Source of the DNA: Candidatus Uhrbacteria bacterium
Lineage (GTDB): Bacteria; Patescibacteriota; Patescibacteriia; UBA9934; GWF2-40-263
DNA length: 50,250 nt
NCBI GenBank assembly: GCA_014239775.1
Contig: JAAZYG010000050.1
Span: 1 to 50,250, forward strand
Direction: 5' to 3'
Part shown: positions 150-49,788 of the stretch, in pieces
How positions within the stretch are numbered: the first letter of the stretch is position 1
Layout of the letters: every line of letters starts with the position of its first letter
Notes under the pieces: model-generated
The model's input: only the letters and a program-made list of their open reading frames with translations
Databases searched by the model: none
Told to the model about the DNA's origin: nothing
Position numbers and translations under genes: made by a program

Positions 150-818
150 CTAGGAATGGGTTGTTGAAAAACACAAGCTGTTATTCCTTTCAATTCTCTC
201 GATCGAATCAATTTGAGTATAATCAACTTGATCTGGATCATCTAGTTCGTCTGCAACTCGCCCAAGGTGCGTCACTTCATATTCACCATACCATTCTTCA
301 AATGTATCCTTGGGTACAAAATATGTTCGACGTCGATTCTGACCATAGTCTACATGCAGAAAGCATGTAAACATGATTTCTGGAAAATACTCTTTGAGCA
401 TTTTTTTTCCACGCACCATATGGTCTACAGTACCAACAACATCTAAGTCGATCATACTGGATGCACCGCAAGGTGTGTGTACCATCAGCGCAACAGATCG
501 AATACCTTTCATTTTAATTGCTTGAGCAATTTCAGTTCTAATCAAACCAGAGACATCGTGTTCTTCAAACAGATTTACACCGTCTGACAAAAGCATGGCG
601 CCGCCATGATTGGCAATTGTATGAGGTCTTGTTTGACCTTCACTTTCAATTGCCATCGATGCATTATGATTAAGAAGATCAGTTAATTGATCCCCATCAC
701 TGCAGCATACAATAATTGAGCCAACGTGTTGATTGAACTTCGTAGAGTCTGTATTAACAAGAACATCTCCTTGTCTCATCATATCTACCAATTGACGATC
801 TCTGATACTAAGTTTCAT
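150..818 (-). CDS. Hypothetical protein with a beta-carbonic-anhydrase-like Cys/His/Cys signature (tentative)
   Basis: 222-aa ORF. SD GGAGGTG (825-831) lies 6 nt upstream of the ATG. Motifs VCCSDGD ... IANHGG ... ALMVHTPCGA parallel the beta-CA motifs CSDSR ... RNAGN ... GHxxCG. The Arg of the Asp/Arg dyad is replaced and the spacing is about 18 residues longer. Confidence 0.8.
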   Translation of the reverse strand: MKLSIRDRQLVDMMRQGDVLVNTDSTKFNQHVGSIIVCCSDGDQLTDLLNHNASMAIESEGQTRPHTIANHGGAMLLSDGVNLFEEHDVSGLIRTEIAQAIKMKGIRSVALMVHTPCGASSMIDLDVVGTVDHMVRGKKMLKEYFPEIMFTCFLHVDYGQNRRRTYFVPKDTFEEWYGEYEVTHLGRVADELDDPDQVDYTQIDSIERIERNNSLCFSTTHS

Positions 819-7705: not shown

Positions 7706-7734
7706 AGTATATGTCTTTATTTGCTTTTGGTCAA
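7706..7734 (-). promoter_or_regulatory. Sigma70-type promoter of the atp operon
   Basis: On the minus strand: TTGACC (7734-7729), 17 nt, TATACT (7711-7706). Lies between the upstream terminator and atpZ. Confidence 0.55.
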
Positions 7735-7752: not shown

Positions 7753-7801
7753 AAAAAAAAGCGGTAATAACATTATATTTAATTCATAATATTATTACCG
7801 C
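7753..7801 (-). terminator. Rho-independent terminator of ORF 7822..9402
   Basis: 16-bp stem with one mismatch, GCGGTAATAACATTAT / ATAATATTATTACCGC (7761-7801). On the minus strand it is followed by eight T (plus-strand A-run at 7753-7760). Confidence 0.7.
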
Positions 7802-7821
7802 AGTACGCACACTGTCACTTA

Positions 7822-9402
7822 CTAAGATGTAGGGCTCGCATCATTAGAAGAAGACGTCTTTTTTTTAGCAGACTTCTTCTTTAGGGCATTAGGCTTCTTT
7901 GCAGAAGTCTTCTTTGCAGAAACCTTCTTTCTTCCTGAAGTAGAAGATTTCTTTGAAGCCTTTTTGCTCTCAGTCTGTTTCTCAACGTAACCATCTTTCT
8001 TAAGAATAAAATTAATTACCCAAGACCGAATCGTACGATGGAAATGACTTCTGTGATTATATTCTCCGTCAATAACAGAGTTGAGCCAACACACAACTGC
8101 ATCTTCAGAATCAGGAGTGCCTCGCACAACATTAGGACCGTTACCAGCAAGCATGACTTCAGCAGAAGGCATTCCAGGAACTCTGCTTAGTTTTGACCAC
8201 ACATCAGCAAGCTTGGTCTTATAGCAATCCAAGGCTTTTACTACGGCCTCTCGAGCCAAATCACTAAGAATTGGACCTACAAGATTACAAGAATCACTTG
8301 ACTCAATACGTCCAAGCTGCAATGCCCAGTCATAAAGTGGATTAGTCAAATCATAATCCCGTCTCAACAGCATGGCAGTGTGTTTTTCAACCCTGTCAGG
8401 ATTGAAACGCATAATATTCGTACCAAGAACTGCAAATGGATCAAATTCACTTTTTACATCAACATCCATCTGACACTCATTGATTTGAACATCTTTTTCA
8501 CGACCCAGCCAGGTTGCAACAATTGATGACTCTAGCAGTCTGATACGAAAAACATGCTTTTGACCAGTGTAGACATATTGTCCATTACCTTCAATCTTTG
8601 CAGGTGGAGGAGATTGAGATCTGTCATCTAACTGGATCTTTTTTCCAAAAATCGAACCAATGAAGTAAACCTCCTTGTGCTTTTGTTTACCTTTTTCAGG
8701 ACCAAATCTAATGGTCTCCTTATAGGTCTGTGACCACATACGCCCAACAGGCAGAGTGATACGACGTGTACCATTCTTGTTAAGATTATGTGAGATTGGC
8801 TCAATGTGTGGCCACTTGCGCTCAGGCAAATCATCTACAATACGATTCCAACGAGACAAGATTGAAGGATCTGCAAGTCCGACAGGCAACACCTTAAAAG
8901 GTCCTTTGTCGTTCTTTGGTTTAAATACAATACAATGAAATGTTCCATTGGACCGCAACCAGCCATTGTCATTTACAATGTAGTTAATCCCTACAACGAT
9001 CAGAGGAACCACCTCCACCTCACCATATCCAGACAAATGAACTGTAGAGCTGATGCGTACATCAATCACCTTTCTAACACCCTTGTCAGTCCTGTGAATG
9101 GTTTGACCTTCAAATTCAATCGGAATGATTTGTGGTGACACACCGTCTGACTGCACAACCAAACGCTCACGCATTTTATTGTGTGCCTTCTGGTCTCCGC
9201 CAGTAACAATTGCCGACAATTGCAACAAGTTTGTTACCAGACTTTTTACAGTTCCAACATGTCCTGGCAATGCCAGTGCAGTTGATTCAGATCCATTCAC
9301 CTTATTGTTTTCAGGCTCCTTACTTGGAATAGTCATTCCTAGTGCACTGATAACAGGATCATCTGTTGTTTTAATTCTCGAATCTGTTTTATCTTCATCC
9401 AT
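7822..9402 (-). CDS. Orphan 526-aa protein with a lysine-rich histone-H1-like C-terminal tail
   Basis: Long ORF in AT-rich DNA. SD AGAGGTGA (9407-9414) with its own promoter and terminator. The tail is KKASKKSSTSGRKKVSAKKTSAKKPNALKKKSAKKKTSSS. I recognise no family motif in the ~470-aa body. Confidence 0.85.
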   Translation of the reverse strand: MDEDKTDSRIKTTDDPVISALGMTIPSKEPENNKVNGSESTALALPGHVGTVKSLVTNLLQLSAIVTGGDQKAHNKMRERLVVQSDGVSPQIIPIEFEGQTIHRTDKGVRKVIDVRISSTVHLSGYGEVEVVPLIVVGINYIVNDNGWLRSNGTFHCIVFKPKNDKGPFKVLPVGLADPSILSRWNRIVDDLPERKWPHIEPISHNLNKNGTRRITLPVGRMWSQTYKETIRFGPEKGKQKHKEVYFIGSIFGKKIQLDDRSQSPPPAKIEGNGQYVYTGQKHVFRIRLLESSIVATWLGREKDVQINECQMDVDVKSEFDPFAVLGTNIMRFNPDRVEKHTAMLLRRDYDLTNPLYDWALQLGRIESSDSCNLVGPILSDLAREAVVKALDCYKTKLADVWSKLSRVPGMPSAEVMLAGNGPNVVRGTPDSEDAVVCWLNSVIDGEYNHRSHFHRTIRSWVINFILKKDGYVEKQTESKKASKKSSTSGRKKVSAKKTSAKKPNALKKKSAKKKTSSSNDASPTS

Positions 9403-9493
9403 GAAATCACCTCTATTTGGAAGCAGACATTTAGTCTTTGTGAATATTTAAAAGTACGATTCCCTTACTAGTTTAACTTTAGTACGAGGATCG

Positions 9494-9522
9494 ATATTAT
9501 CAGTAAATTTTCTAAATGTCAA
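9494..9522 (-). promoter_or_regulatory. Consensus sigma70-type promoter for ORF 7822..9402
   Basis: On the minus strand: TTGACA (9522-9517), 17 nt, TAATAT (9499-9494). This implies a 5' UTR of about 85 nt. Confidence 0.6.
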
Positions 9523-9590
9523 GCGATCTAAACTTTTTTTTATATTTTGTAATAATGCTCTACAACACAACATATTTATGTAAAAATATA

Positions 9591-9619
9591 TTGACAAAAT
9601 CAATAATTACTGCTATATT
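9591..9619 (+). promoter_or_regulatory. Consensus extended -10 promoter for the acidic-protein gene
   Basis: TTGACA (9591-9596), 17 nt, TGcTATATT (9611-9619). Confidence 0.6.
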
Positions 9620-9654
9620 TACTCCCTGCACTCATGCAGCAAAGGAGGTGTACT

Positions 9655-10782
9655 TTGAAAATTTCAACTAGGGTTGAAGCTCTTCAAGCTATTTTTGGTG
9701 AACGTGAATGTCGAGACTTTGATCTCGCTGTTGATTTAATTGGTGATAATCTTGATCTGGGTTCTGCTGAAAAAATGGAACTGGACACTTTAAATGACTC
9801 AACTTTAGTGAACCTAAATGAATTCAAGGAAGATCCAGAAAATTTTATCGAAGAAGAATACGATATTGATACTGGGTATAATCCTTATTTGATCAAACTA
9901 GCCCGTCTGATTGGTCTGACATTTATCACTCTTCATGAAGAAGTTATTGCACATACAGATAAGCTACTTCAGCACGTTTCTACTATAAAAGACACTGCTA
10001 ATCCTATGGATTTTGATAGTTCTTCTGGCGAGGAGACAGAACTTGATGATGCTGAACAAGAAACTGCAGCATCTTCAATGGCTGTTGATGGATCTGATGA
10101 CGATAATTTATATCCTGTGAATGAGTTAAATCCACCTGATGCAGTCTCACTTGATCATGAAAATGATTTTGTTGTGCTAGACACAGAATCAAATCAAGAT
10201 CAACCAACTGATGTTATGGTTGAGGAAGTGGCAGATGATCATGCCGGTCTATTGGAATCACTAAACTCAGGGTTTGTTAGACCAAATCTTGGTCATGATG
10301 AACAAGAATCTCTGCCTGAGGACTTTCAAGATCAAGAAGCTTTAGAGAATCCTGCAAAAGAAGATGATTCTCATAATTCTGTACAACCTGAATCAAACAT
10401 CACATCAAATTCAGTTTTTAGTAATGTGAGTAAGAATGTGGTGCCAGATCTATTTTTTCCTGTGGCTGGAACTATGTCTCAGTCTGAGGAGCTGAGTACC
10501 CAAAATACACGAGCAATCACAGAACATGCTTGGTGGATTAGTAGAAAACAATCCATTGAACATGCCGTGCGTATTGTACGAGATGAAAAATGTGTGTTTG
10601 AGGCTATTGGCGGCAAAAGTGATCTTAATATCTGGCAAGAATATATGTCAGAATGTTCACAAGGTTACTATAGTCCTATCAATATTGAGCGTGGACATCT
10701 TGGAAACGCTTTGATACAGGCTTTATTGTCCAAGATGGATATCCTAGATCCAAATGAGTATATTGAGCGTTTTGGCTCTTAA
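9655..10782 (+). CDS. Orphan, strongly acidic protein with a long D/E/S/N-rich central region
   Basis: ORF is open from 9634. GGAGGTG (9644-9650) sits 4 nt upstream of the in-frame TTG at 9655, whereas the ATG at 9634 would lie only ~8 nt from the predicted TSS with no SD. The middle ~170 residues are dominated by D, E, S, N and Q. No recognisable motif. Confidence 0.8.
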   Translation: MKISTRVEALQAIFGERECRDFDLAVDLIGDNLDLGSAEKMELDTLNDSTLVNLNEFKEDPENFIEEEYDIDTGYNPYLIKLARLIGLTFITLHEEVIAHTDKLLQHVSTIKDTANPMDFDSSSGEETELDDAEQETAASSMAVDGSDDDNLYPVNELNPPDAVSLDHENDFVVLDTESNQDQPTDVMVEEVADDHAGLLESLNSGFVRPNLGHDEQESLPEDFQDQEALENPAKEDDSHNSVQPESNITSNSVFSNVSKNVVPDLFFPVAGTMSQSEELSTQNTRAITEHAWWISRKQSIEHAVRIVRDEKCVFEAIGGKSDLNIWQEYMSECSQGYYSPINIERGHLGNALIQALLSKMDILDPNEYIERFGS

Positions 10783-10800
10783 TAAGCTCGTAAATTCTCT

Positions 10801-10833
10801 AGAGTGATTACATTTGTTTTCACTCTTTTTTTA
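10801..10833 (+). terminator. Rho-independent terminator after the acidic-protein gene
   Basis: Stem AGAGTGA (10801-10807)/TCACTCT (10820-10826) followed by a T-run. Abuts the convergent tatD stop. Confidence 0.6.
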
Positions 10834-11712
10834 TAATTTAAAAAGTTTTTTTGCATTTAATGTTGTTTGTTTTGCAACATGCTCTACACTCAGATTCTTT
10901 AAATAAGCAACTTTTTGTGCAACAAATTCAACATAACCAGGCTCATTCCTCTTCCCTCTATAAGGTAATGGTGTTAGGTATGGTGAGTCTGTCTCGATTA
11001 ATATTTTTTCCAATGGGATATTTTTTACAACATTTTGAATCTCTGTAAGACCATCAATTAAAACATCTTTCTTTCTTGCTGGAAAAGTAATTGTTCCAGT
11101 AAATGAAATATAGAGGCCCAGATCAATAAATTTATTTGCCTGTTCTAGGTTGCCAGAAAAGCAATGCACAACACCTCCAGCTTGAAGCTTGCCTTCTTTT
11201 GTATATTCAAAAACTAGATCAGCCTGCTCATCATACCCATCTCTGCAATGTATTATAATAGGAAGATTCATTTCTGTTGCAAGATCAAAGTGCTGTCGTA
11301 CTACTTCATACTGCTTTTCTATAACCTCATCTTTATTAGCCTCCTCTGGTATTCTATAAAAATCCAGACCGCACTCACCTATTGCAACACACTTTGGATG
11401 TTGTGCTAATTTCCTAAAATACTCATAATCAAAATCTTCAGTTCTTGTTTTTATCTTGTTTGTTGTTTGTTTTTCTGGAGGAAGTTCATCATCATCAAAA
11501 AATGATTGTGCAACCAGATGATTTGGGTGTAGGCCAACAGAGGCCCACAGTCCATCGTGTTTCTCTGATACTAGCAATCCATTTTTACTTGTATCCTTTT
11601 GGGTTCCAACCGTAATCATAAAAACCCCTTTTTTAAGGGTTCTTTTTATTACATCATCCATATCATCTTTGTACGCATTGAAATGCACATGACAGTGTGT
11701 ATCAAATAACAT
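10831..11712 (-). CDS. tatD: TatD-family metal-dependent hydrolase/DNase
   Basis: MLFDTHCHVHF, GECGLDFYR, IIHCRD, VVHCFSG and ETDSPYLTP motifs. Confidence 0.92.
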   Translation of the reverse strand: MLFDTHCHVHFNAYKDDMDDVIKRTLKKGVFMITVGTQKDTSKNGLLVSEKHDGLWASVGLHPNHLVAQSFFDDDELPPEKQTTNKIKTRTEDFDYEYFRKLAQHPKCVAIGECGLDFYRIPEEANKDEVIEKQYEVVRQHFDLATEMNLPIIIHCRDGYDEQADLVFEYTKEGKLQAGGVVHCFSGNLEQANKFIDLGLYISFTGTITFPARKKDVLIDGLTEIQNVVKNIPLEKILIETDSPYLTPLPYRGKRNEPGYVEFVAQKVAYLKNLSVEHVAKQTTLNAKKLFKL

Positions 11713-12222: not shown

Positions 12223-13659
12223 TTAATCCTTCTTTGGAAATAACGGATCCCCTACTAATATAAGTTTACCATATCTACGCAATATTTCTTCTGCTGTTTC
12301 TGGAATGATTGGTAAAAGTGCATCTGCTATGAATCTAATATTCTCTGCAAGTTCTGATAAAACTTTTTTTGCAGCATTTTCATCTTCTTTAACTAGCTTA
12401 AATGGCTTAGTTTTCTCAATTGTTTCATTTGCATCTGAAATACTTTCAAAAATATGGTCAACGTATTTTTTAAAATCATAATTAGTCATGTCATCTTTCA
12501 ATTGTTTTTTCTTTAAACTAAAATCAATGTGCACTTGATCTAAATTACCTTGAAAGTATGAATTAGACATTGAAGCAACTCTACCAACAAGATTACCCAA
12601 TTGATTTGCAAGTTCAGAGTATCTTTCATTCATTCTTTTTTCTGAATAATCACCATCTGCGTGTGAAGGCATTTCACGTAATAAGTAGTACCTTACAGCA
12701 TCGGCTCCGTAATTTTCAACAATCTGATATGGATCAACTACATTACCAAGACTCTTGCTCATCTTCCTTCCTTCCGATGTAATAAATCCGTGTATAAAGA
12801 CCTGTTTTGATGTTGGTAAACCTGCAGACATAAGCATCGCCTGCCACATAGCTGATTGCTGACGCAAATTATCTTTACCAGCAACCTGTACACCAGGCCA
12901 GTATTCATTAAATTCTTTTCCGTCATCTTGCCAATCTAGTGTTGAGATATAATTAATTAAAGCATCAAACCACACATACATTACATGATCACTGTCTCCT
13001 GGCACCTCTATTCCCCATGGCATTTTTTTCTTTAATCTTGAAATACTAAAATCCTGCAACCCCGATTCAACAAAGTTTTTTATTTCAAGAAGCCTATTTG
13101 ATGGAACTACGAAATTTGGATTACTCTCATATAACTCAATTAGCTTGTCTTGATACCTTGAGAACTTGAAGAAATAATTCTCTTCATTTTTATGTTCTAT
13201 TTCTCTGTTTGGATGTGTTCCACATTTACCATCAAGTAACTCAGAGTCTGTAATTTCTAATTCACAACCAACGCAGTATTTAGTTTTGTAGTTCTTTTTA
13301 TATATATCACCATTCTCACTACAAATATTCCAAAATTTTTGAGCAGCTCTGATATGCTTTTCATCTGTGGTTCTTATAAAATGATCATAGGTTAAATTTA
13401 ATGCATTTTTTAATGCATCGAATTTTTCTGCATACTCATCAGCATACTCTTGTGGTTCTTTACCAGCCTCGACCGCTTTTTCGTAAATCTTTTTACCATG
13501 TTCGTCTGTTCCGGTATTAAAAATTACACTCCTACCTAAATTACGATTATACCTTGCAATTACATCGGCCTGAATAATCTCAAGAGCAAAACCGATGTGT
13601 GGTTTTGCATTTACATATGGCAATGTGGTTGTGATGTAAAAATTTTCTTTATCGTTCAT
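12223..13659 (-). CDS. metG: Methionine--tRNA ligase (no C-terminal tRNA-binding domain)
   Basis: 478 aa. HIGH-type PHIGFALEIIQAD, a Cys knuckle CVGCE...GKCGTH, and KMSKS (RKMSKSLGN). Confidence 0.95.
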   Translation of the reverse strand: MNDKENFYITTTLPYVNAKPHIGFALEIIQADVIARYNRNLGRSVIFNTGTDEHGKKIYEKAVEAGKEPQEYADEYAEKFDALKNALNLTYDHFIRTTDEKHIRAAQKFWNICSENGDIYKKNYKTKYCVGCELEITDSELLDGKCGTHPNREIEHKNEENYFFKFSRYQDKLIELYESNPNFVVPSNRLLEIKNFVESGLQDFSISRLKKKMPWGIEVPGDSDHVMYVWFDALINYISTLDWQDDGKEFNEYWPGVQVAGKDNLRQQSAMWQAMLMSAGLPTSKQVFIHGFITSEGRKMSKSLGNVVDPYQIVENYGADAVRYYLLREMPSHADGDYSEKRMNERYSELANQLGNLVGRVASMSNSYFQGNLDQVHIDFSLKKKQLKDDMTNYDFKKYVDHIFESISDANETIEKTKPFKLVKEDENAAKKVLSELAENIRFIADALLPIIPETAEEILRRYGKLILVGDPLFPKKD

Positions 13660-20780: not shown

Positions 20781-21629
20781 ATGTCTAAACCTATATTAAT
20801 AATGAAATCACATGGACAATTAGAGCCATTTGATGAAAAAAAGGTTCGAACAAGCATTGCACGTACTGGTGCTGATAAAAAAGTTGTTGATCAAGTGCTT
20901 GATGTAATTAAGAAAAAACTTAAACCAAAAATGCGTACATCTGATATTTATAAATTAGTAAATATTGAACTTGATAAATTGAAACCATGGGCTGCTGCCA
21001 GATACAACCTAAGAGATGCGATCATTAAAATGGGGCCAACTGGCTTTCATTTTGAAAAATATGTTGCGTCTATACTAAACGCGTATGGATATGACGCAAT
21101 TACACCCGATACTTATCAGGGAGCATGTATTTCACATGAAGTAGATGTTACAGCAAAAAAAGAAGGTAGAACAGCATTTATAGAAGCAAAGTTTAGACAT
21201 GATTACAGAGGTACTGTAAATATCAAAGACACCATGTCTACATGGACACGTTTTTTAGATCTTGTTGATGGTTCAAAAGTTGAGCTTTGTCCGCATTTTG
21301 ATGAAGCATGGATCGTTACAAATGCACGTTTTACAGATCAATCATTGAAGTATGGACATTGTAAGAATATGGTTCTTATTGGTTGGAATCATCCTCGAGA
21401 AAGAACCTTTGCTCATATGGTAGATTTGAATGCATTATATCCCGTAACACTGATAAAAGATCTAAATAAGCCTGAACTTGAAGCACTTGCCAGTGAAAAC
21501 ATCATGTTGTGCAGAGATATAATAGGCCTTGAAATACCAAAATTAAAACAAAAAACCGGCTTTTCTATATCTCGAGCTGAAAATATTATAAAATCATGCG
21601 AGGCCATAATTTCTGGTGACAAGGTTTGA
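20781..21629 (+). CDS. ATP-cone domain fused to a PD-(D/E)xK (Mrr-like) restriction-endonuclease-fold domain
   Basis: N-terminus IMKSHGQLEPFDEKKVRTSIARTGADKKVVDQVLDVIKKKL is an ATP-cone. It is followed by GFHFEKYVASILNAYGYDA ... HEVDVTAKKEGRTAFIEAKF, a D...ExK nuclease core. Confidence 0.8.
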   Translation: MSKPILIMKSHGQLEPFDEKKVRTSIARTGADKKVVDQVLDVIKKKLKPKMRTSDIYKLVNIELDKLKPWAAARYNLRDAIIKMGPTGFHFEKYVASILNAYGYDAITPDTYQGACISHEVDVTAKKEGRTAFIEAKFRHDYRGTVNIKDTMSTWTRFLDLVDGSKVELCPHFDEAWIVTNARFTDQSLKYGHCKNMVLIGWNHPRERTFAHMVDLNALYPVTLIKDLNKPELEALASENIMLCRDIIGLEIPKLKQKTGFSISRAENIIKSCEAIISGDKV

Positions 21630-28621: not shown

Positions 28622-29383
28622 CTATTCCTGAACAATTTCTTCAGAATCTGTTTCTTTAATTTCTTCCTCAATATCAACCCTCTCTTCAGATACTGGTTGC
28701 TTTTGCAATAAAATTGAAAAATAATCAATAAGTATCTTTGTAGATTGTTCAACAGCCTCTTCTGGTGTGATTGTGCCGTCTGTTTCAATGTTCATTATTA
28801 ATTTATCATAGTTGGTTATTTCACCAACACGAGTATCTACAACTGTATATCCAACATTTCTAATTGGTGAAAATATAGCATCTATTGAAATTGTGCCCAT
28901 GTCATTATTCTCATTACCTCTTTCTTCTGTTGTGCTATAACCACGTCCTTTTCTAACTGTTAATTCCATATCTATTTCAGAAGATGAATCACTTAATGTT
29001 GCGATTATAAAATCTTTATTGATAATTTCTACATCTGCATTTGGCTCAATATCAGCCGCTGTGATTTTCTTTGCACCAGAGTGCTGTAATTTTAATACTA
29101 TTGGTTCATCACTAAACACCTTCATTCTTAAAGATTTTAGATTTAATATAATCTCAAGCATGTCTTCCTGCACACCTTTAATTGCTTGAAATTCATGTGT
29201 TACTCCCTTAATTTTAATTGCTGTAACAGCAGCACCTGGCAAAGATGATAATAATACACGCCTAAGTGCATTTCCTAATGTAGTACCATAACCATGAAAA
29301 CAGGGTTCTATTATTAGAACGCCTTCATTTTCTTTTTCGCCTTTTTCAAAACGAATATCTGATGGAAGTAAAATGTTTTCCAT
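28622..29383 (-). CDS. rpoA: DNA-directed RNA polymerase subunit alpha, N-terminal domain only (no alpha-CTD)
   Basis: GYGTTLGNALRRVLLSSLPGAAVTAIKIKGVTHEF and the rest of the NTD are present. The protein ends in the acidic tail EERVDIEEEIKETDSEEIVQE just after the NTD. I use ATG 29383 (MENILLP...) because the track's TTG 29410 would overlap rpsD by 20 nt. Confidence 0.9.
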   Translation of the reverse strand: MENILLPSDIRFEKGEKENEGVLIIEPCFHGYGTTLGNALRRVLLSSLPGAAVTAIKIKGVTHEFQAIKGVQEDMLEIILNLKSLRMKVFSDEPIVLKLQHSGAKKITAADIEPNADVEIINKDFIIATLSDSSSEIDMELTVRKGRGYSTTEERGNENNDMGTISIDAIFSPIRNVGYTVVDTRVGEITNYDKLIMNIETDGTITPEEAVEQSTKILIDYFSILLQKQPVSEERVDIEEEIKETDSEEIVQE

Positions 29384-29390
29384 AATGTTT

Positions 29391-30005
29391 TTACCTTGAG
29401 TAGAACTCAACGATTAAGGTTGAATCAAATAATTGCTCTATATCTTCACTTGCTGGCAATGCTGTAACTTTTCCAGTTATAGCCTTTTCATCTCTTGCCA
29501 ACCATGAAGGTACTTGAGTTTCTTTAATATTTTCAATTCCTTGCTTTATAATTCCTTTTTCTATCTTTGACTGTTTAATTGAAATCTCATCACCAATCCT
29601 TGCACTAAATGAAGGAATGTCAACACGTTTTCCATTAACTTCTATGAATCCGTGATTAACAATTTGCCTTGCTTGACGTCTGGTTTTTGCAATACCTAGC
29701 CTGTATATAATATTATCCAAACGTAATTCCAAAAGCTGCAACATAACCTCAGCGGTATTACCGGTTTTCTTTGATGCTTTTTGATAATAACCTCTAAACT
29801 GACGCTCCAGGATTCCATATAACGCCTTGGCTTTTTGCTTTTCAAGCAACTGTTCACCATATGATGAAAGTCTTGGTCTGCGCCTTACGTTCTTAGGACC
29901 ATGTATACCTGGTGGATATGGCCTACGACGAACATAGTTCTCCTTACCCAATGTAATTCCTAGTCTTCGAGATCTCTTTACGATTTTTGATCTATCTTTT
30001 GCCAT
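29391..30005 (-). CDS. rpsD: 30S ribosomal protein S4
   Basis: 204 aa. S4 domain RLDNIIYRLGIAKTRRQARQIVNHGFIEVNGKRV. Confidence 0.97.
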   Translation of the reverse strand: MAKDRSKIVKRSRRLGITLGKENYVRRRPYPPGIHGPKNVRRRPRLSSYGEQLLEKQKAKALYGILERQFRGYYQKASKKTGNTAEVMLQLLELRLDNIIYRLGIAKTRRQARQIVNHGFIEVNGKRVDIPSFSARIGDEISIKQSKIEKGIIKQGIENIKETQVPSWLARDEKAITGKVTALPASEDIEQLFDSTLIVEFYSR

Positions 30006-31348: not shown

Positions 31349-33238
31349 CTAATTTTGTTCTAAAATTGCTTTAATTCTTCTTATTCCAGAACTACTAGAT
31401 TCCTCTTTTTTTATACTGAATTTACCTAATTCACCAGTCCTTTTCACATGTGGACCTCCGCACACTTCTTTACTAAAACAAACACCCTCTGATTCAGAGC
31501 CTATGTTATATACTTTTATCTTACCGCCCAACTGAGCATATTTATCATCAAAAACACCTATAGCACCACTACTCTTAGCATCTTTAATATCATACATCTG
31601 ATATTCAACAATAAGATCTTTTTTTATATTCACATTAACTAGATCCTCTACTTTTTTTATTTCTTCTTTTGTTATTTTTTGTGGATGTGTAAAATCAAAA
31701 CGCAATCTTTTTTGTGTAATATTTGATCCCTTTTGCACAACATGGTCTCCTAAAATAGTCCTTAATGCCTGATGCAGCATATGTGTTGCAGTATGTAGTC
31801 TTACGGTTTCTTTAGCATCATCAGCAAGTCCACCCACAAATTTCTGTGTTGAACCAGCACGAGAAAGATCTTGGTGTTTTCTAAATTCTTTAATAAATAC
31901 ATCCTTATCAACTAACTGACCTTTTTCTTCTGCTAGTTCTTGTGTTAGCTCTAGCGGAAATCCATATGTTGAATAAAGTATGAATGCATCTTTGCCTGAT
32001 ATTCCATTATTTTTTTCGAACATATCAACAAACTCCTTCTCACCCTTTATAAGTGTTTTGGCAAATTTTTTCTCTTCATCTACAAGCTTCTCTAATATAT
32101 TAACTCTGTTGATTTCTAAGTCCGAATAATGGACTTTGTATTTTTCAATAAATTTTTCTGCAACCAAACCACAAAATTCATTATCTATTCCAAGCTTCTT
32201 TCCAAAACGTACAGCACGTCTTATAAGACGTCTTACAAAATAACCTTGATCTTTATTTGATGGATAAGCATTATCATTAATTAAAAAGGTTGCAGCCCTA
32301 ACATGATCTAGTATTACTCTAAATGCTTTTTTTATTTCTGTATTTTCATCATATCTTAAACCTGACTTCCCTTCCAAAACATCAATTGCTTCATTAAATA
32401 CATCAATTTTAAAAATATCTGAAACATTATTCTCGGCAGCAACAATACGCTCTAAACCTCCACCAAAATCTACATTCTTACTAGGTAATGACTTGAAACC
32501 TTTTTCTGTTCTGACATATTCCATAAATACACTGTTTCCAATCTCTAAAAACCTTCCACAGTCACAATTTACATGGCATATATTATCTTTATACTTCGAC
32601 TTTTCATGTACACCTAGATCTTCTCCAAAATCCCAAAACATCTCTGTGTCTGGTCCACCAGGCTCACCTGACGGCATTTTTTCTGGCATACCATACCTTG
32701 ACCACCAGTTTTTTGACTCATCATAATAAAAAATCTTTCCGCCTTGCAATCCATTAATTTCTGAGTTGTCAATATCAACAGCTTCTATTCCAACACTACT
32801 AAAAGCATCTTTCCATAACAAAACCGATACAACATCACGTTCTATACCTAATTTTTTATTTCCTCTAAATACAGTTACATACAGCCTATTAGGATCTAAT
32901 CCTAATTCTTTTGTAAGAAACTCGAAAACCCATGGTATTTGCTGAGTTTTAAAATAATCACCCAATGACCAATTACCAAGCATTTCAAAAAAAGTGGTAT
33001 GCCTATTATCACCAACCTCATCAATGTCTTGTGACCTAAAGCATTTCTGTGAATTTGTTAACCTTCTTCCACTAGAATGTACCTCCCCTAACAAATATGG
33101 GACTATTGGTTGCATTCCTGAGCCTGTAAATAGTGTAGTTGGATCATTGTCAGGTAACAGTGAAGCAGAACCTATTATTTCGTGGTTGTATTTTTTGAAA
33201 AAATTTAAATATTTTTCTCTAATTTCGTATGTTTTCAT
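31349..33238 (-). CDS. alaS: Alanine--tRNA ligase, short form lacking the C-terminal (C-Ala/DHHA1-like) domain
   Basis: 629 aa. The N-terminal class II core (FTGSGMQP, FEMLGNWSLGDYF) and the editing domain (HTATHMLHQALR, CGGPHV) are present. The protein stops shortly after the editing domain. Confidence 0.93.
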   Translation of the reverse strand: MKTYEIREKYLNFFKKYNHEIIGSASLLPDNDPTTLFTGSGMQPIVPYLLGEVHSSGRRLTNSQKCFRSQDIDEVGDNRHTTFFEMLGNWSLGDYFKTQQIPWVFEFLTKELGLDPNRLYVTVFRGNKKLGIERDVVSVLLWKDAFSSVGIEAVDIDNSEINGLQGGKIFYYDESKNWWSRYGMPEKMPSGEPGGPDTEMFWDFGEDLGVHEKSKYKDNICHVNCDCGRFLEIGNSVFMEYVRTEKGFKSLPSKNVDFGGGLERIVAAENNVSDIFKIDVFNEAIDVLEGKSGLRYDENTEIKKAFRVILDHVRAATFLINDNAYPSNKDQGYFVRRLIRRAVRFGKKLGIDNEFCGLVAEKFIEKYKVHYSDLEINRVNILEKLVDEEKKFAKTLIKGEKEFVDMFEKNNGISGKDAFILYSTYGFPLELTQELAEEKGQLVDKDVFIKEFRKHQDLSRAGSTQKFVGGLADDAKETVRLHTATHMLHQALRTILGDHVVQKGSNITQKRLRFDFTHPQKITKEEIKKVEDLVNVNIKKDLIVEYQMYDIKDAKSSGAIGVFDDKYAQLGGKIKVYNIGSESEGVCFSKEVCGGPHVKRTGELGKFSIKKEESSSSGIRRIKAILEQN

Positions 33239-47730: not shown

Positions 47731-49788
47731 TTATTCAAATTTAATAGATTGACCTTCTTTTATTGTACCTCTCTTGGTTTTGCTGTTCGACTTAATATTA
47801 TTATTACCTTGAGAATGATTGGTGTGTTTGTTCTGATTTTGTTTATTATTTTGTACCCTTATTTTTTCTTCTATTTTTTTATCTTTATTTTCTCTGACTT
47901 GTTTGTTTTGATTACGACTCACATTATTTTTCTCCTTATCTACATCTTTTGATCTATTGCGTTCTTTTTTACCAGTGTTTGATTTTGACTGCTTGTTGTT
48001 ATTATTATCACCTTCTCTGGTCTGATGTTTATTGTCTGACTTTGTTTTATTCTGCTTGTCTTTATTTTCTGTATTTTCTGTATTTTCACTGTGTTTATTT
48101 TTCTTATCTTGTGTATTTACTTTAGTCGTCTCTGTTTTACTCTCATTTATTTCTCTGGGTTTTTTTAATGAATCTAATGATATTGGTTTTTCATTTGAAA
48201 CCTTTTTCACATCTTCACCAGATGAAGGTTTTTTAGAATTTTTACTTTGTGAGTTTTGATTCTTATTTTGTTGCTTATAATTACTGTTTTTGTTTTTTAC
48301 TTTACCTTTTTTACGTTCTTCCTTAACAATCTCAATACATGTCTCACAATAAATTGGACGTGACCTATCCAGCTCAACAGGTAGTACCATGTCTTTGTTA
48401 CATTTTGTACAATTATATTCATGTCTTGGTTTACGGGATTCCTTCATTGATTTCTTTTTAGCCTTTGCTTCATCAAGAAGTGTATCTATATCCTTACCCT
48501 CCATGCCACTCCACTCTAAAATCTTTTTCTCTATATGCTCTCTTGGTAAAGCATATTTTTCTCTAGATATATTTATAATCTTTTCAGATGAATGTGTAAT
48601 ATTGGCAATTGGAGGTAGTGTTATAGCAGAAAATGGTTGACTAGATACTCCATCAATTAATAATTTTAGATATATATTAAACTTAGGTAGATTTATTATA
48701 TCTTCAGGTGTAAATCTTGGAGTAAACTCTTTTTCCATATATAAAGCATCTGGAGAACCAACTCTAAATGTAATAATAGTACCCACATTACCAAACACAG
48801 CCTCACGCACCTCGTCTGTAAGTTGTGCGATATACTGATGGGCCATTGTTAAACATAATCTATATTTTCGTGCCTCTGATAAAATTCCAGCAAATGATTC
48901 AACAGCAAAATTCTGAAATTCATCCACATATAAATAAAAGTCTTCTCGCTCAGACTCTGGCATGTCTACACGTTCCATTGCAGATAATTGTAATTTTGTA
49001 ATCAACAACCCACCGAGTAGCTTTGAATTATCTTCACCCACTCTTCCCTTTGAAAGATTAATTATGAATATCTTTTGTGAATCCATTATCTCCCTAATGT
49101 TGATCGTTGATTTTATTTGAGAAACAATATTCCTAATAACTGACGCAGATAAAAATTGTCCGATTTTATTCTGAATTGGTGCGACTGCCTCCTGTGCATA
49201 TTTTTCATTGTAAGAAGCAAATTCTTTTAACCAGAACTGTCTAACAACTGGATCTGTTACATTGCTAACAATTTCTTTTCTAAAATCTGCGTCTGATAAC
49301 ATTCTATTTATACCCAGCAGGGTCTGACCCGGATTGGCTAATAGTGCCAATATTGTATTATTTAAAATATACTCCATTCTTGAAGACCACATATTCTCCC
49401 AAATCTTTTTAAACACACCCATCATTCCACTTGCAACCAGATGCTTATGTCTCTCACTAACTGCTTCTAGAATGTTAAATCCTACAGGAAAATCTACATC
49501 TGCTGGGTTAAAATAAACAACATCATCCATCCTCCAGCTGGGTATATAATCAATTAATTTTTCAGCTGTATCTCCATGAGGATCAATATAACAACAACCA
49601 TGACCTGCATAAATATCAGATAATATATAATTTTCAAGCAAGGTTGTCTTTCCCATTCCTGTTTTTCCAATAACATAAACATGACGCCGTCTGTCGTCTG
49701 TTTTTATACCAAATTTAGTCATTTGATTTCTAAAATTTGTTTTGGCAAAATATGTTACCTCCTCTTCATGGTCATGATTATAAGTCAT
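47731..49788 (-). CDS. VirD4/TraD-like (type IV coupling-protein-like) P-loop ATPase fused to a 4-Cys zinc ribbon and a long N/K/Q-rich tail
   Basis: 685 aa. Walker A GKTGMGKT, Walker B FYLYVDEF, MAHQ. No N-terminal TM helix. CTKC-x17-CETC at residues 460-484. Residues ~492-685 are low-complexity K/N/Q/S. Confidence 0.8.
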   Translation of the reverse strand: MTYNHDHEEEVTYFAKTNFRNQMTKFGIKTDDRRRHVYVIGKTGMGKTTLLENYILSDIYAGHGCCYIDPHGDTAEKLIDYIPSWRMDDVVYFNPADVDFPVGFNILEAVSERHKHLVASGMMGVFKKIWENMWSSRMEYILNNTILALLANPGQTLLGINRMLSDADFRKEIVSNVTDPVVRQFWLKEFASYNEKYAQEAVAPIQNKIGQFLSASVIRNIVSQIKSTINIREIMDSQKIFIINLSKGRVGEDNSKLLGGLLITKLQLSAMERVDMPESEREDFYLYVDEFQNFAVESFAGILSEARKYRLCLTMAHQYIAQLTDEVREAVFGNVGTIITFRVGSPDALYMEKEFTPRFTPEDIINLPKFNIYLKLLIDGVSSQPFSAITLPPIANITHSSEKIINISREKYALPREHIEKKILEWSGMEGKDIDTLLDEAKAKKKSMKESRKPRHEYNCTKCNKDMVLPVELDRSRPIYCETCIEIVKEERKKGKVKNKNSNYKQQNKNQNSQSKNSKKPSSGEDVKKVSNEKPISLDSLKKPREINESKTETTKVNTQDKKNKHSENTENTENKDKQNKTKSDNKHQTREGDNNNNKQSKSNTGKKERNRSKDVDKEKNNVSRNQNKQVRENKDKKIEEKIRVQNNKQNQNKHTNHSQGNNNIKSNSKTKRGTIKEGQSIKFE

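Follow-up and report, generated by a model that had tools for sequence, protein, structure and literature searches.

A divergent gene pair outside known protein families at the tatD–ATPase junction of a rare, uncultured bacterial lineage

The stretch of 50,250 nucleotides of the Candidatus Uhrbacteria contig JAAZYG010000050.1, referred to as the window, carries two divergent genes between the atp operon and tatD, which are here named A and B and are the subject of this analysis. Gene A (7822..9402, minus strand) is an open reading frame (ORF) for 526 amino acids, the last part of which (7822..7993, minus strand) encodes a disordered Lys/Ser/Ala-rich C-terminal tail (residues ~470-526), and gene B (9655..10782, plus strand) encodes 375 amino acids and has a TTG start. 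Between them lies a shared, strandless control region of 252 bp (9403..9654), which holds both promoters and both 5' leaders. The promoter of A (9522-9494, minus strand) is TTGACA-17-TAATAT and that of B (9591-9619, plus strand) is TTGACA-17-TATATT, the -10 element being preceded by TG in both. The intrinsic terminator of A (7761..7801, minus strand), having a 17-bp stem, a T8 run, a folding free energy of -19.7 kcal/mol and a z-score of -3.26, is positioned between gene A and the atp promoter region, where a promoter-like site of the atp operon (TTGACC-17-TATACT; 7706..7734, minus strand) is found upstream of atpZ. The terminator of B (10801-10826, plus strand) is positioned between B and the convergent tatD and has a 7-bp stem, a 12-nt loop, a T7 run, a free energy of -11 kcal/mol and a z-score of -3.65; its loop exceeds the 8-nt loop limit of a simple terminator scan, and it is supported by the folding z-score. 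This is in agreement with the first-pass annotation of this DNA, which described a divergent pair with these coordinates for A, bounded by two terminators and self-contained with its own promoters: both terminators are real by folding (z -3.3 and -3.65), and two consensus promoters are found. The ORF of B is also as described, but its start has been moved. The ATG-started ORF spans 9634..10782 (plus strand), and the true start is almost certainly the TTG at 9655 rather than the ATG at 9634, because the sequence AAGGAGG is located 6 nt upstream of this TTG and because the orthologue on L002, a contig with 76% relatedness, has the identical arrangement of Shine-Dalgarno sequence and TTG.

The promoters of A and B are the top-ranked sites of the region in a promoter scan. 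The pattern TTGACA-N13-15-TGnTAnnnT has two matches in the whole window when both strands are considered, and these are the two promoters, whereas shuffled sequences give 0.19 matches. The near-perfect promoters that had been described for both genes are therefore confirmed, the combination of a perfect -35 element and an extended -10 element being unique to these two sites in the window. A relaxed pattern (TTG followed by three partly fixed bases, 15-19 nt, TANNNT) was used for scanning 12 control regions of the clade, including two orthologous ones (of the window and of L002). Back-to-back promoter-like matches on both strands are seen in 11 of the 12, from genomes with a GC content of 34% to 63%, and in the remaining control region, of L090, there is a match on one strand only. 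Nearly all printed matches have a TTGACA -35 element and a TG two bases before the -10 element, and the spacing from -35 to -35 is about 70 bp in eight of the control regions. When the window is compared with L002, the control region is 81% identical, and the four-fold degenerate sites of A are 57% identical. As judged from these comparisons, the expression signals appear to be the most conserved feature of the cassette, and strong, constitutive co-expression of A and B would be the natural interpretation of the promoters. Folding of the A leader gives no greater stability than that of shuffled sequences (z -0.06) and no Rfam match was found in the leaders, and on these grounds a structured leader RNA is rejected. 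A-tract, UP-element-like sequences are located upstream of the -35 elements in the control regions. Elsewhere in the window, the rpoA gene (28622-29410, minus strand, immediately followed by rplQ) encodes a product of 262 amino acids without the alpha C-terminal domain, for which the NCBIfam match stops at profile position 251 of 320 and is followed by an acidic tail; the lack of this domain is odd, because UP-element-like sequences are present in the control regions of A and B.

The protein encoded by A has an isoelectric point (pI) of 9.5 and a net charge of +20, mostly in the Lys/Ser/Ala-rich tail, such that the last 45 residues have a net charge of +14. The protein encoded by B has a pI of 4.1 and a net charge of -57, its residues 101-275 consisting of 24% D+E and 3% K+R. 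Neither a signal peptide nor a transmembrane segment is predicted in these two proteins. A word-indexed search of 5.8 billion proteins with A and B detected two relatives of A, being P0002 (76% identical) and P0003 (35% identical), and none of B. In an exhaustive profile search of 1.84 billion representatives (E ≤ 0.001), A-like proteins were found in 64 clusters, 56 of these at E ≤ 1e-10, with lengths of mostly 470-640 residues besides a few shorter partial sequences. The family-wide tests of A were done with 53 members, and those of B with 10 members. When A or B alone was compared with Pfam, NCBIfam, PHROGs, PADLOC and the sequences of the Protein Data Bank (PDB), only sub-threshold low-complexity noise was obtained, the best sub-threshold curated match being TSP9 (20.1 bits against a cut-off of 25 bits), and nothing consistent emerged from comparing the 53 A members and 10 B members with the curated families (Pfam, NCBIfam and PHROGs). 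PADLOC (PADLOC-DB 2.0) and PHROGs have no match for any A member, no member has a Pfam match to S1, CSD or SSB, and the search of the PDB with the A family profile was empty. No published description of the A-B pair was found. No counterpart of A or B was thus recognized among the curated families, the defence and phage collections or the solved structures, and the pair is rated as far from any known kind. The first-pass annotation was thus right in recognizing no family motif in either product, also when a Foldseek search with the model of A is included; its description of the two as orphan genes holds with respect to known families, but homologues of both genes are present in related genomes.

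The structure of A was predicted with AlphaFold (AF2). With the alignment of 53 sequences, the model has a mean predicted local distance difference test score (pLDDT) of 85.3 and a predicted template modelling score (pTM) of 0.67; a model calculated with an alignment of three sequences (mean pLDDT 38, pTM 0.24) was discarded. In the model, a disordered N-terminus with short conserved motifs (residues 1-45) is followed by helices (residues 47-80), two beta domains (residues 92-173 and 214-301), a helical domain including a 34-residue helix (residues 322-469) and the disordered tail (from residue ~470 onward). According to this prediction, A would be a folded protein, whose multi-domain architecture is confidently modelled. 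The Foldseek search with this model gave no significant match, the best E values being 0.11 in the PDB (probability 0.21) and 0.054 in BFVD. The weak PDB matches are mostly of the OB/S1 type (Dis3L2, RNase II, SSB, uS12, eIF2alpha and CST/RPA), and the likeness with OB-fold proteins, such as SSB/RPA, the S1/cold-shock domains of RNase II/Dis3L2, eIF2alpha and uS12, is that small beta barrels are followed by helices. These proteins supply most of the top-ranked matches, all of which are non-significant, and the OB/S1 similarity of the model should be taken as no more than a hint. Not a single residue is shared by all 53 members, which argues against a conserved catalytic site, and conservation of at least 90% is seen only for P133, P162, L326, P412, D434 and R459. 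An internal duplication of the two beta domains of A, as well as kinship between A and B, was considered and rejected, as the hhalign probability is below 1% in both cases.

The C-terminal tail of A is weakly basic in most members. A basic cluster is present in the last 60 residues of 32 of the 53 members, compared with 27 of 265 internal windows, and lacking in the other 21, and the extreme C-terminus ends in small residues (for example ...ASATPAA and ...QPSA) in 31 of the 53. The net charge of the last 45 residues ranges from -13 to +14, and the pI of the members from 5.1 to 9.7. In composition, with its KKxSAKK repeats, the tail of A in the window is like the tails of histone H1, chlamydial Hc1 and actinobacterial HU; these differ in that the basic tail of A is a lineage-specific decoration and that the folded body of A is unrelated. 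Classification of A as an H1/Hc1-like nucleoid protein is rejected, the Lys/Ala-rich core not being conserved in the family.

The B proteins of 10 genomes, which vary in size from 230 to 375 residues, have a common layout, in which a conserved N-terminal region of about 90 residues is followed by a variable low-complexity linker and a helical C-terminal domain. The N-terminal region, having the motif M..A..ALFG.D ... F..DP..FIA....DPR, can be aligned across the 10 genomes, and the linker is acidic or Pro/Ala-rich, being acidic and probably disordered (~101-275) in the window. One transmembrane helix is predicted in B of L085 and of L086, and in the latter a Cys-rich segment follows this helix. 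The 297-residue protein encoded beside P0003 aligns with the N-terminus of B (29% identity over 77 residues, E 2e-4) and has the C-terminal ending DPxEF..RY of the B type. In L002, a fragment of B that is 60% identical to B of the window is present.

Relatives were gathered by a metagenome scan seeded with TatD, followed by tblastn and ORF inspection; a metagenome scan with patterns derived from the A alignment, which were too specific, found no relatives. The P0003 contig is syntenic with the window over 20 kb, its gene order being pepA ... sod-ahpC ... rsmI-metG-cvpA-tatD, then the gene of the 297-residue protein on the opposite strand, then P0003 and atpZBEFHAGDC. The contigs with a TatD of 60-65% identity and enough downstream sequence (L004/5, L006, L007, L008, L009/11/12 and L013) all carry an A-like gene (480-643 residues) and a divergent B-like gene (230-354 residues) between tatD and the ATPase operon, and the same arrangement is found around further, in some cases distant, members of A (P0030, P0055, P0007, P0010, P0013 and P0019). 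In every context with enough sequence, from about 12 distinct genomes, A and a divergent B-like partner are located at the ATPase operon, and no A gene lacking a B-like neighbour was seen where sequence is available. The first-pass annotation had proposed that co-occurrence and adjacency be looked for in relatives, and A and B are indeed adjacent and divergent in every related genome examined. It had also proposed that the junction between atpZ and tatD might be empty in close relatives. This junction is empty (82-168 bp) in four outgroup contigs with a TatD of 41-47% identity, which are more distant relatives, whereas the members of the clade all carry the pair, such that the notion of a recent insertion of orphan genes is not upheld: the pair is fixed across the whole clade. 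As it is present in all contigs with a TatD of 60-65% identity and not in those of 41-47% identity, the A-B pair would represent a clade-specific acquisition at the tatD-ATPase junction that is fixed in this clade, and it is known only from one rare, uncultured bacterial lineage.

At the junction of other outgroups (L031, L034, L026 and L019), unrelated single genes are found, encoding FKBP-like, GNAT-like and coiled-coil proteins and a 400-residue ORF, and the site appears to tolerate insertions in general. In L007, the pair (8666-10931) is located between tatD and a gene whose N-terminus we take to be that of subunit I of a V/A-type ATPase, and no F-type atp gene was detected on this contig; a V-type ATPase operon in place of the F-type operon beside the pair would suggest replacement of the operon in situ. 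The only duplication of A was seen in L090 (1245-5697), in which two convergent paralogues, one of 605 residues without a basic tail and one of 535 residues with such a tail, are followed by a B-like gene.

The charge complementarity between A and B, which the first-pass annotation had emphasized, is only in part a property of the family. The net charge ranges from -24 to +20 for A and from -57 to 0 for B, and the two show a negative correlation (Spearman -0.74, n=10, p=0.014, without correction for phylogeny). The complementarity in the window is the extreme of this weak family trend; the signs vary, the tail of A is in most cases only weakly basic, and B is near-neutral in 3 of the 10 pairs. 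An electrostatic relationship between A and B is possible, but it is not the defining feature of the pair.

Between genomes, the sequence identity is 14-36% for A and 13-29% for B, compared with 62-72% for TatD, 63-85% for AtpB and about 80% for AtpA in the same genomes. The orientation of the cassette also varies. In the window, L001, L009/11/12, L087, L088 and the P0010 locus, A is co-directional with and adjoins the atp operon, here called the (+) orientation, and the divergent unit is reversed as a whole, called (-), in L004/5, L006, L007, L008, L013, L085 and L086. The similarity of A tracks this orientation and not the relatedness of the flanks. The A proteins of the window, L001, L087 and L088, all (+), are 27-35% identical to one another, whereas L008(-) and L087(+) share 85% identity in AtpB and 16% in A, and the window(+) and L008(-) share 70% in CvpA, 66% in MetG and 18-19% in A. 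Inversion or insertion mediated by repeats was rejected, as the only flanking matches are A/T-rich and at chance level. The nucleotide sequences of L009 and L011 are 100% identical in the 2.2 kb of metG-cvpA and in the 1.36 kb of the control region with A, and inside this otherwise identical sequence there is a 2.1-kb tract (L009 2200-4290), covering tatD and most of B, that is 59-96% identical. In this tract, B has 72% amino acid identity and a ratio of non-synonymous to synonymous substitution rates (dN/dS) of 0.37, and TatD has 92% identity and a dN/dS of 0.07. It represents either sequence imported by recombination or a mosaic assembled from two coexisting strains, and under either interpretation two B alleles coexist with one A allele. 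A second mosaic at the strain level was sought in L088/L089, which are 100% identical in every segment compared, and in L004/L005, which differ slightly (identity 0.99) in two segments. In close pairs, the dN/dS of A is 0.11-0.16, indicating purifying selection, and that of B is 0.32-0.37, indicating weaker constraint. In variants that are 97% identical to the window proteins, the differences are mainly in the disordered ends of A and in the acidic linker of B, and include an indel of five residues within the tail of A.

The cassette has also an atypical composition. The GC content at third codon positions (GC3) of A is above that of the flanking genes in 11 of 11 genomes, for example 0.34 against 0.18-0.25 in the window, 0.92 against about 0.47 in L001, 0.97 against about 0.70 in L005 and 0.81 against about 0.39 in L008. 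B likewise has a higher GC3 than the flanks in 9 of the 10 genomes in which it is complete, all except the window. In L001, the GC content of the pair is 66-70%, against about 49%. The ribosomal-protein genes of the window have a GC3 of 0.16-0.26, and the raised GC3 of A is therefore not the usual codon bias linked to expression, which is rejected as its cause. The incongruence, the mosaic and the GC3 values would be compatible with GC-biased gene conversion at a hot spot of recombination. A second fast-evolving gene without a Pfam match is located at the far end of the atp operon (150-818, minus strand; 20142-20717 in L001). In the comparison of the window with L001, its identity is 31%, against 60-87% for its neighbours, and it too has an elevated GC3 (0.30 in the window, 0.76 in L001), such that the GC3 anomaly may be general to the fast-evolving genes of this lineage.

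The reading that is preferred, to which a probability of about 0.4 is assigned, is that A and B form an interacting, constitutively expressed, diversifying module. The module would have arisen once, at the tatD-ATPase junction of a rare lineage with a reduced genome, and would then have become fixed, both genes being transcribed strongly and constitutively from the conserved back-to-back promoter region. A would be its conserved "output" component, in which two small beta barrels and a helical domain precede a disordered tail, without a recognizable catalytic site; the tail usually has a short basic cluster, and A may plausibly bind a polyanion such as nucleic acid. B would dock on A via its conserved N-terminal region of about 90 residues, and its variable, mostly acidic linker and C-terminal domain could tune or antagonize A, or set specificity. 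The module would be under diversifying selection and recurrent recombination, which points to a role in recognition or conflict (with phage, host or neighbour) rather than in core housekeeping. Several observations weigh against this reading. Conflict systems are usually patchy, whereas A and B occur in all members of the clade that were seen, and none of the 53 A members is matched by a PADLOC model. In L088, A and B are both acidic, B is near-neutral in some pairs as described above, and the charge correlation has a small n without correction for phylogeny. The OB/S1 matches, on which the fold comparison of A relies, are not significant (E at least 0.11, probability at most 0.28, TM-score at most 0.38, root-mean-square deviation 7-13 Å). 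The mosaic of L009/L011 could be chimeric, with two strains merged in the assembly, and several of the evolutionary inferences rest on short metagenome contigs. Finally, A is under purifying selection in close pairs, such that much of its divergence may simply be old. It is doubtful whether one may go further and see in the pair an unseen kind of constitutive recognition/conflict module with a new architecture, universal in the clade, in which divergent allelic classes of opposite orientation at a single site are shuffled by recombination like idiomorphs or pherotypes, B setting the specificity (for phage, host or kin) and A executing.

Two kinds of known systems share part of this pattern. 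Hypervariable cassettes, such as capsule/O-antigen loci, agr/com pherotype regions and defence hot spots, also have conserved flanks, deeply divergent alleles, incongruence with the flanks, recombination tracts in near-identical strains and an atypical composition; the difference is that A-B is a homologous pair in all genomes, not a set of alternative genes, and contains neither an enzyme nor a known defence domain. Type II toxin-antitoxin and polymorphic effector-immunity pairs are self-contained two-gene units with an acidic, partly disordered partner, with rapid co-divergence and with exchange of alleles by recombination. A and B, however, are far larger (526 and 375 residues), are divergent rather than co-transcribed, have no toxin domain, are fixed at one locus in every clade member and have promoters of consensus strength.

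The main rival is that A is an abundant nucleoid- or RNA-associated, OB-like protein and B its acidic chaperone or mimic, as proposed in the first-pass annotation, forming a housekeeping chromatin/RNA-binding pair whose divergence results from weak constraint. The consensus promoters that are kept throughout the clade, the presence of the pair in every member examined, the low dN/dS of A in close pairs, the basic C-terminal clusters together with the anticorrelated charges, and the weak OB/S1-type matches are all as expected for such a pair. Abundant housekeeping proteins are normally slow-evolving, however, whereas A is 14-36% identical where its neighbours are 60-85% identical; the type of the cassette does not follow the relatedness of the flanks, strain-level replacement is seen across B, the basic tail and the acidity vary across the family, and the GC3 of A is unlike that of the ribosomal-protein genes. 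This explanation is therefore considered rather unlikely. That A and B are two unrelated lineage-specific genes, sharing an insertion-tolerant junction without functional coupling, would agree with the unrelated single genes (FKBP-like, GNAT-like and others) at the outgroup junctions and with the B alleles of L009/L011, which are exchangeable without A. It is improbable in view of the divergent arrangement and the shared control region, which persist in every genome whichever orientation the unit has in the chromosome, of the spacing of about 70 bp between the -35 elements in eight loci and of the B-like neighbour that accompanies A wherever sequence is available. Derivation of the pair from a mobile element or prophage, as its remnant or cargo, could account for the compositional island, as in L001, for the varying orientation and for the self-contained transcription signals, but the pair is always at the same chromosomal site, without integrase or transposase, flanking direct or inverted repeats or tRNA, and no match came from tblastn of A against 50,697 phage records and 72,556 plasmid records, from IMG/VR or from PHROGs for the 53 members, which makes this origin highly improbable.

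The remaining rival is that A is a secreted effector, exported independently of Sec, for example via its basic tail by a type IV system of the lineage, and that B is its acidic chaperone or immunity protein, as in the VirE2/VirE1 system. VirE2 of Agrobacterium is a single-stranded-DNA-binding substrate of the type IV secretion system, and VirE1 is its acidic chaperone. By functional analogy, VirE2 is also a beta-rich protein of about 530 residues without a catalytic motif, with a positive C-terminus and an acidic partner, and here too a coupling protein is encoded in the genome: the window carries, beside bacA, an orphan gene for a type IV coupling protein of the VirD4/TrwB type (47731-49788, minus strand; PF10412, PF12696). 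A has no signal peptide or transmembrane segment, and its C-terminus is disordered in the model, with a basic cluster in 32 and small terminal residues in 31 of the 53 members; the fast evolution and recombination of the cassette would also fit an effector, as would the reported frequent occurrence of orphan genes for type IV coupling proteins in Patescibacteria (PMC12102498). Similarity to VirE2 or to any effector family was, however, detected neither in sequence nor in fold. B, having 230-375 residues, is 4-5 times larger than VirE1 and mostly disordered, and is transcribed divergently from its own promoter instead of being co-transcribed, unlike known chaperones or immunity proteins. A basic tail is lacking in about 40% of the A family (21 of 53), no virB4 or virB6 genes are near the pair, no other type IV secretion genes were recognized among the window genes scanned, and the coupling protein gene is 37 kb away. 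Export of A as an effector is therefore distinctly improbable.

If A and B act together, they would be a clade-defining module without a detectable relative in curated families or solved structures. The cassette carries the strongest predicted promoters of the region and shows evolutionary marks that are common in conflict or recognition loci, which are extreme divergence, allele exchange, inversion and atypical composition. In bacteria with reduced genomes, which are probably host-dependent, about half of the genes are unannotated, and in such bacteria a locus of this kind is a promising candidate for specificity towards a host or phage. It is also a clean natural case in which a gene-specific rise in GC3 tracks a recombining cassette over genomic GC contents of 34% to 63%. 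Should the function prove mundane, A as modelled would still be a new multi-domain architecture worth solving.

Other genes of the window are in line with the type of genome that is assumed here. The alanyl-tRNA synthetase (AlaRS) is short, having 629 residues and being of the PRK01584 type (31349-33238, minus strand), and so is the methionyl-tRNA synthetase (MetRS; 478 residues, 12223-13659, minus strand). These short synthetases, together with the finding that no tRNA gene or Rfam family is detected in the 50 kb, are consistent with a reduced genome, and the gene content (short aminoacyl-tRNA synthetases, rpoA without the alpha C-terminal domain and the orphan coupling protein gene) would fit a reduced, Patescibacteria-like genome. 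In addition, a nuclease of unusual architecture is encoded at 20781-21629 (plus strand), combining an ATP-cone, an Mrr-type restriction endonuclease domain and an AF1548-like C-terminal domain in one protein, and its gene adjoins a glycosyltransferase/Wzx cluster (21.8-27.4 kb).

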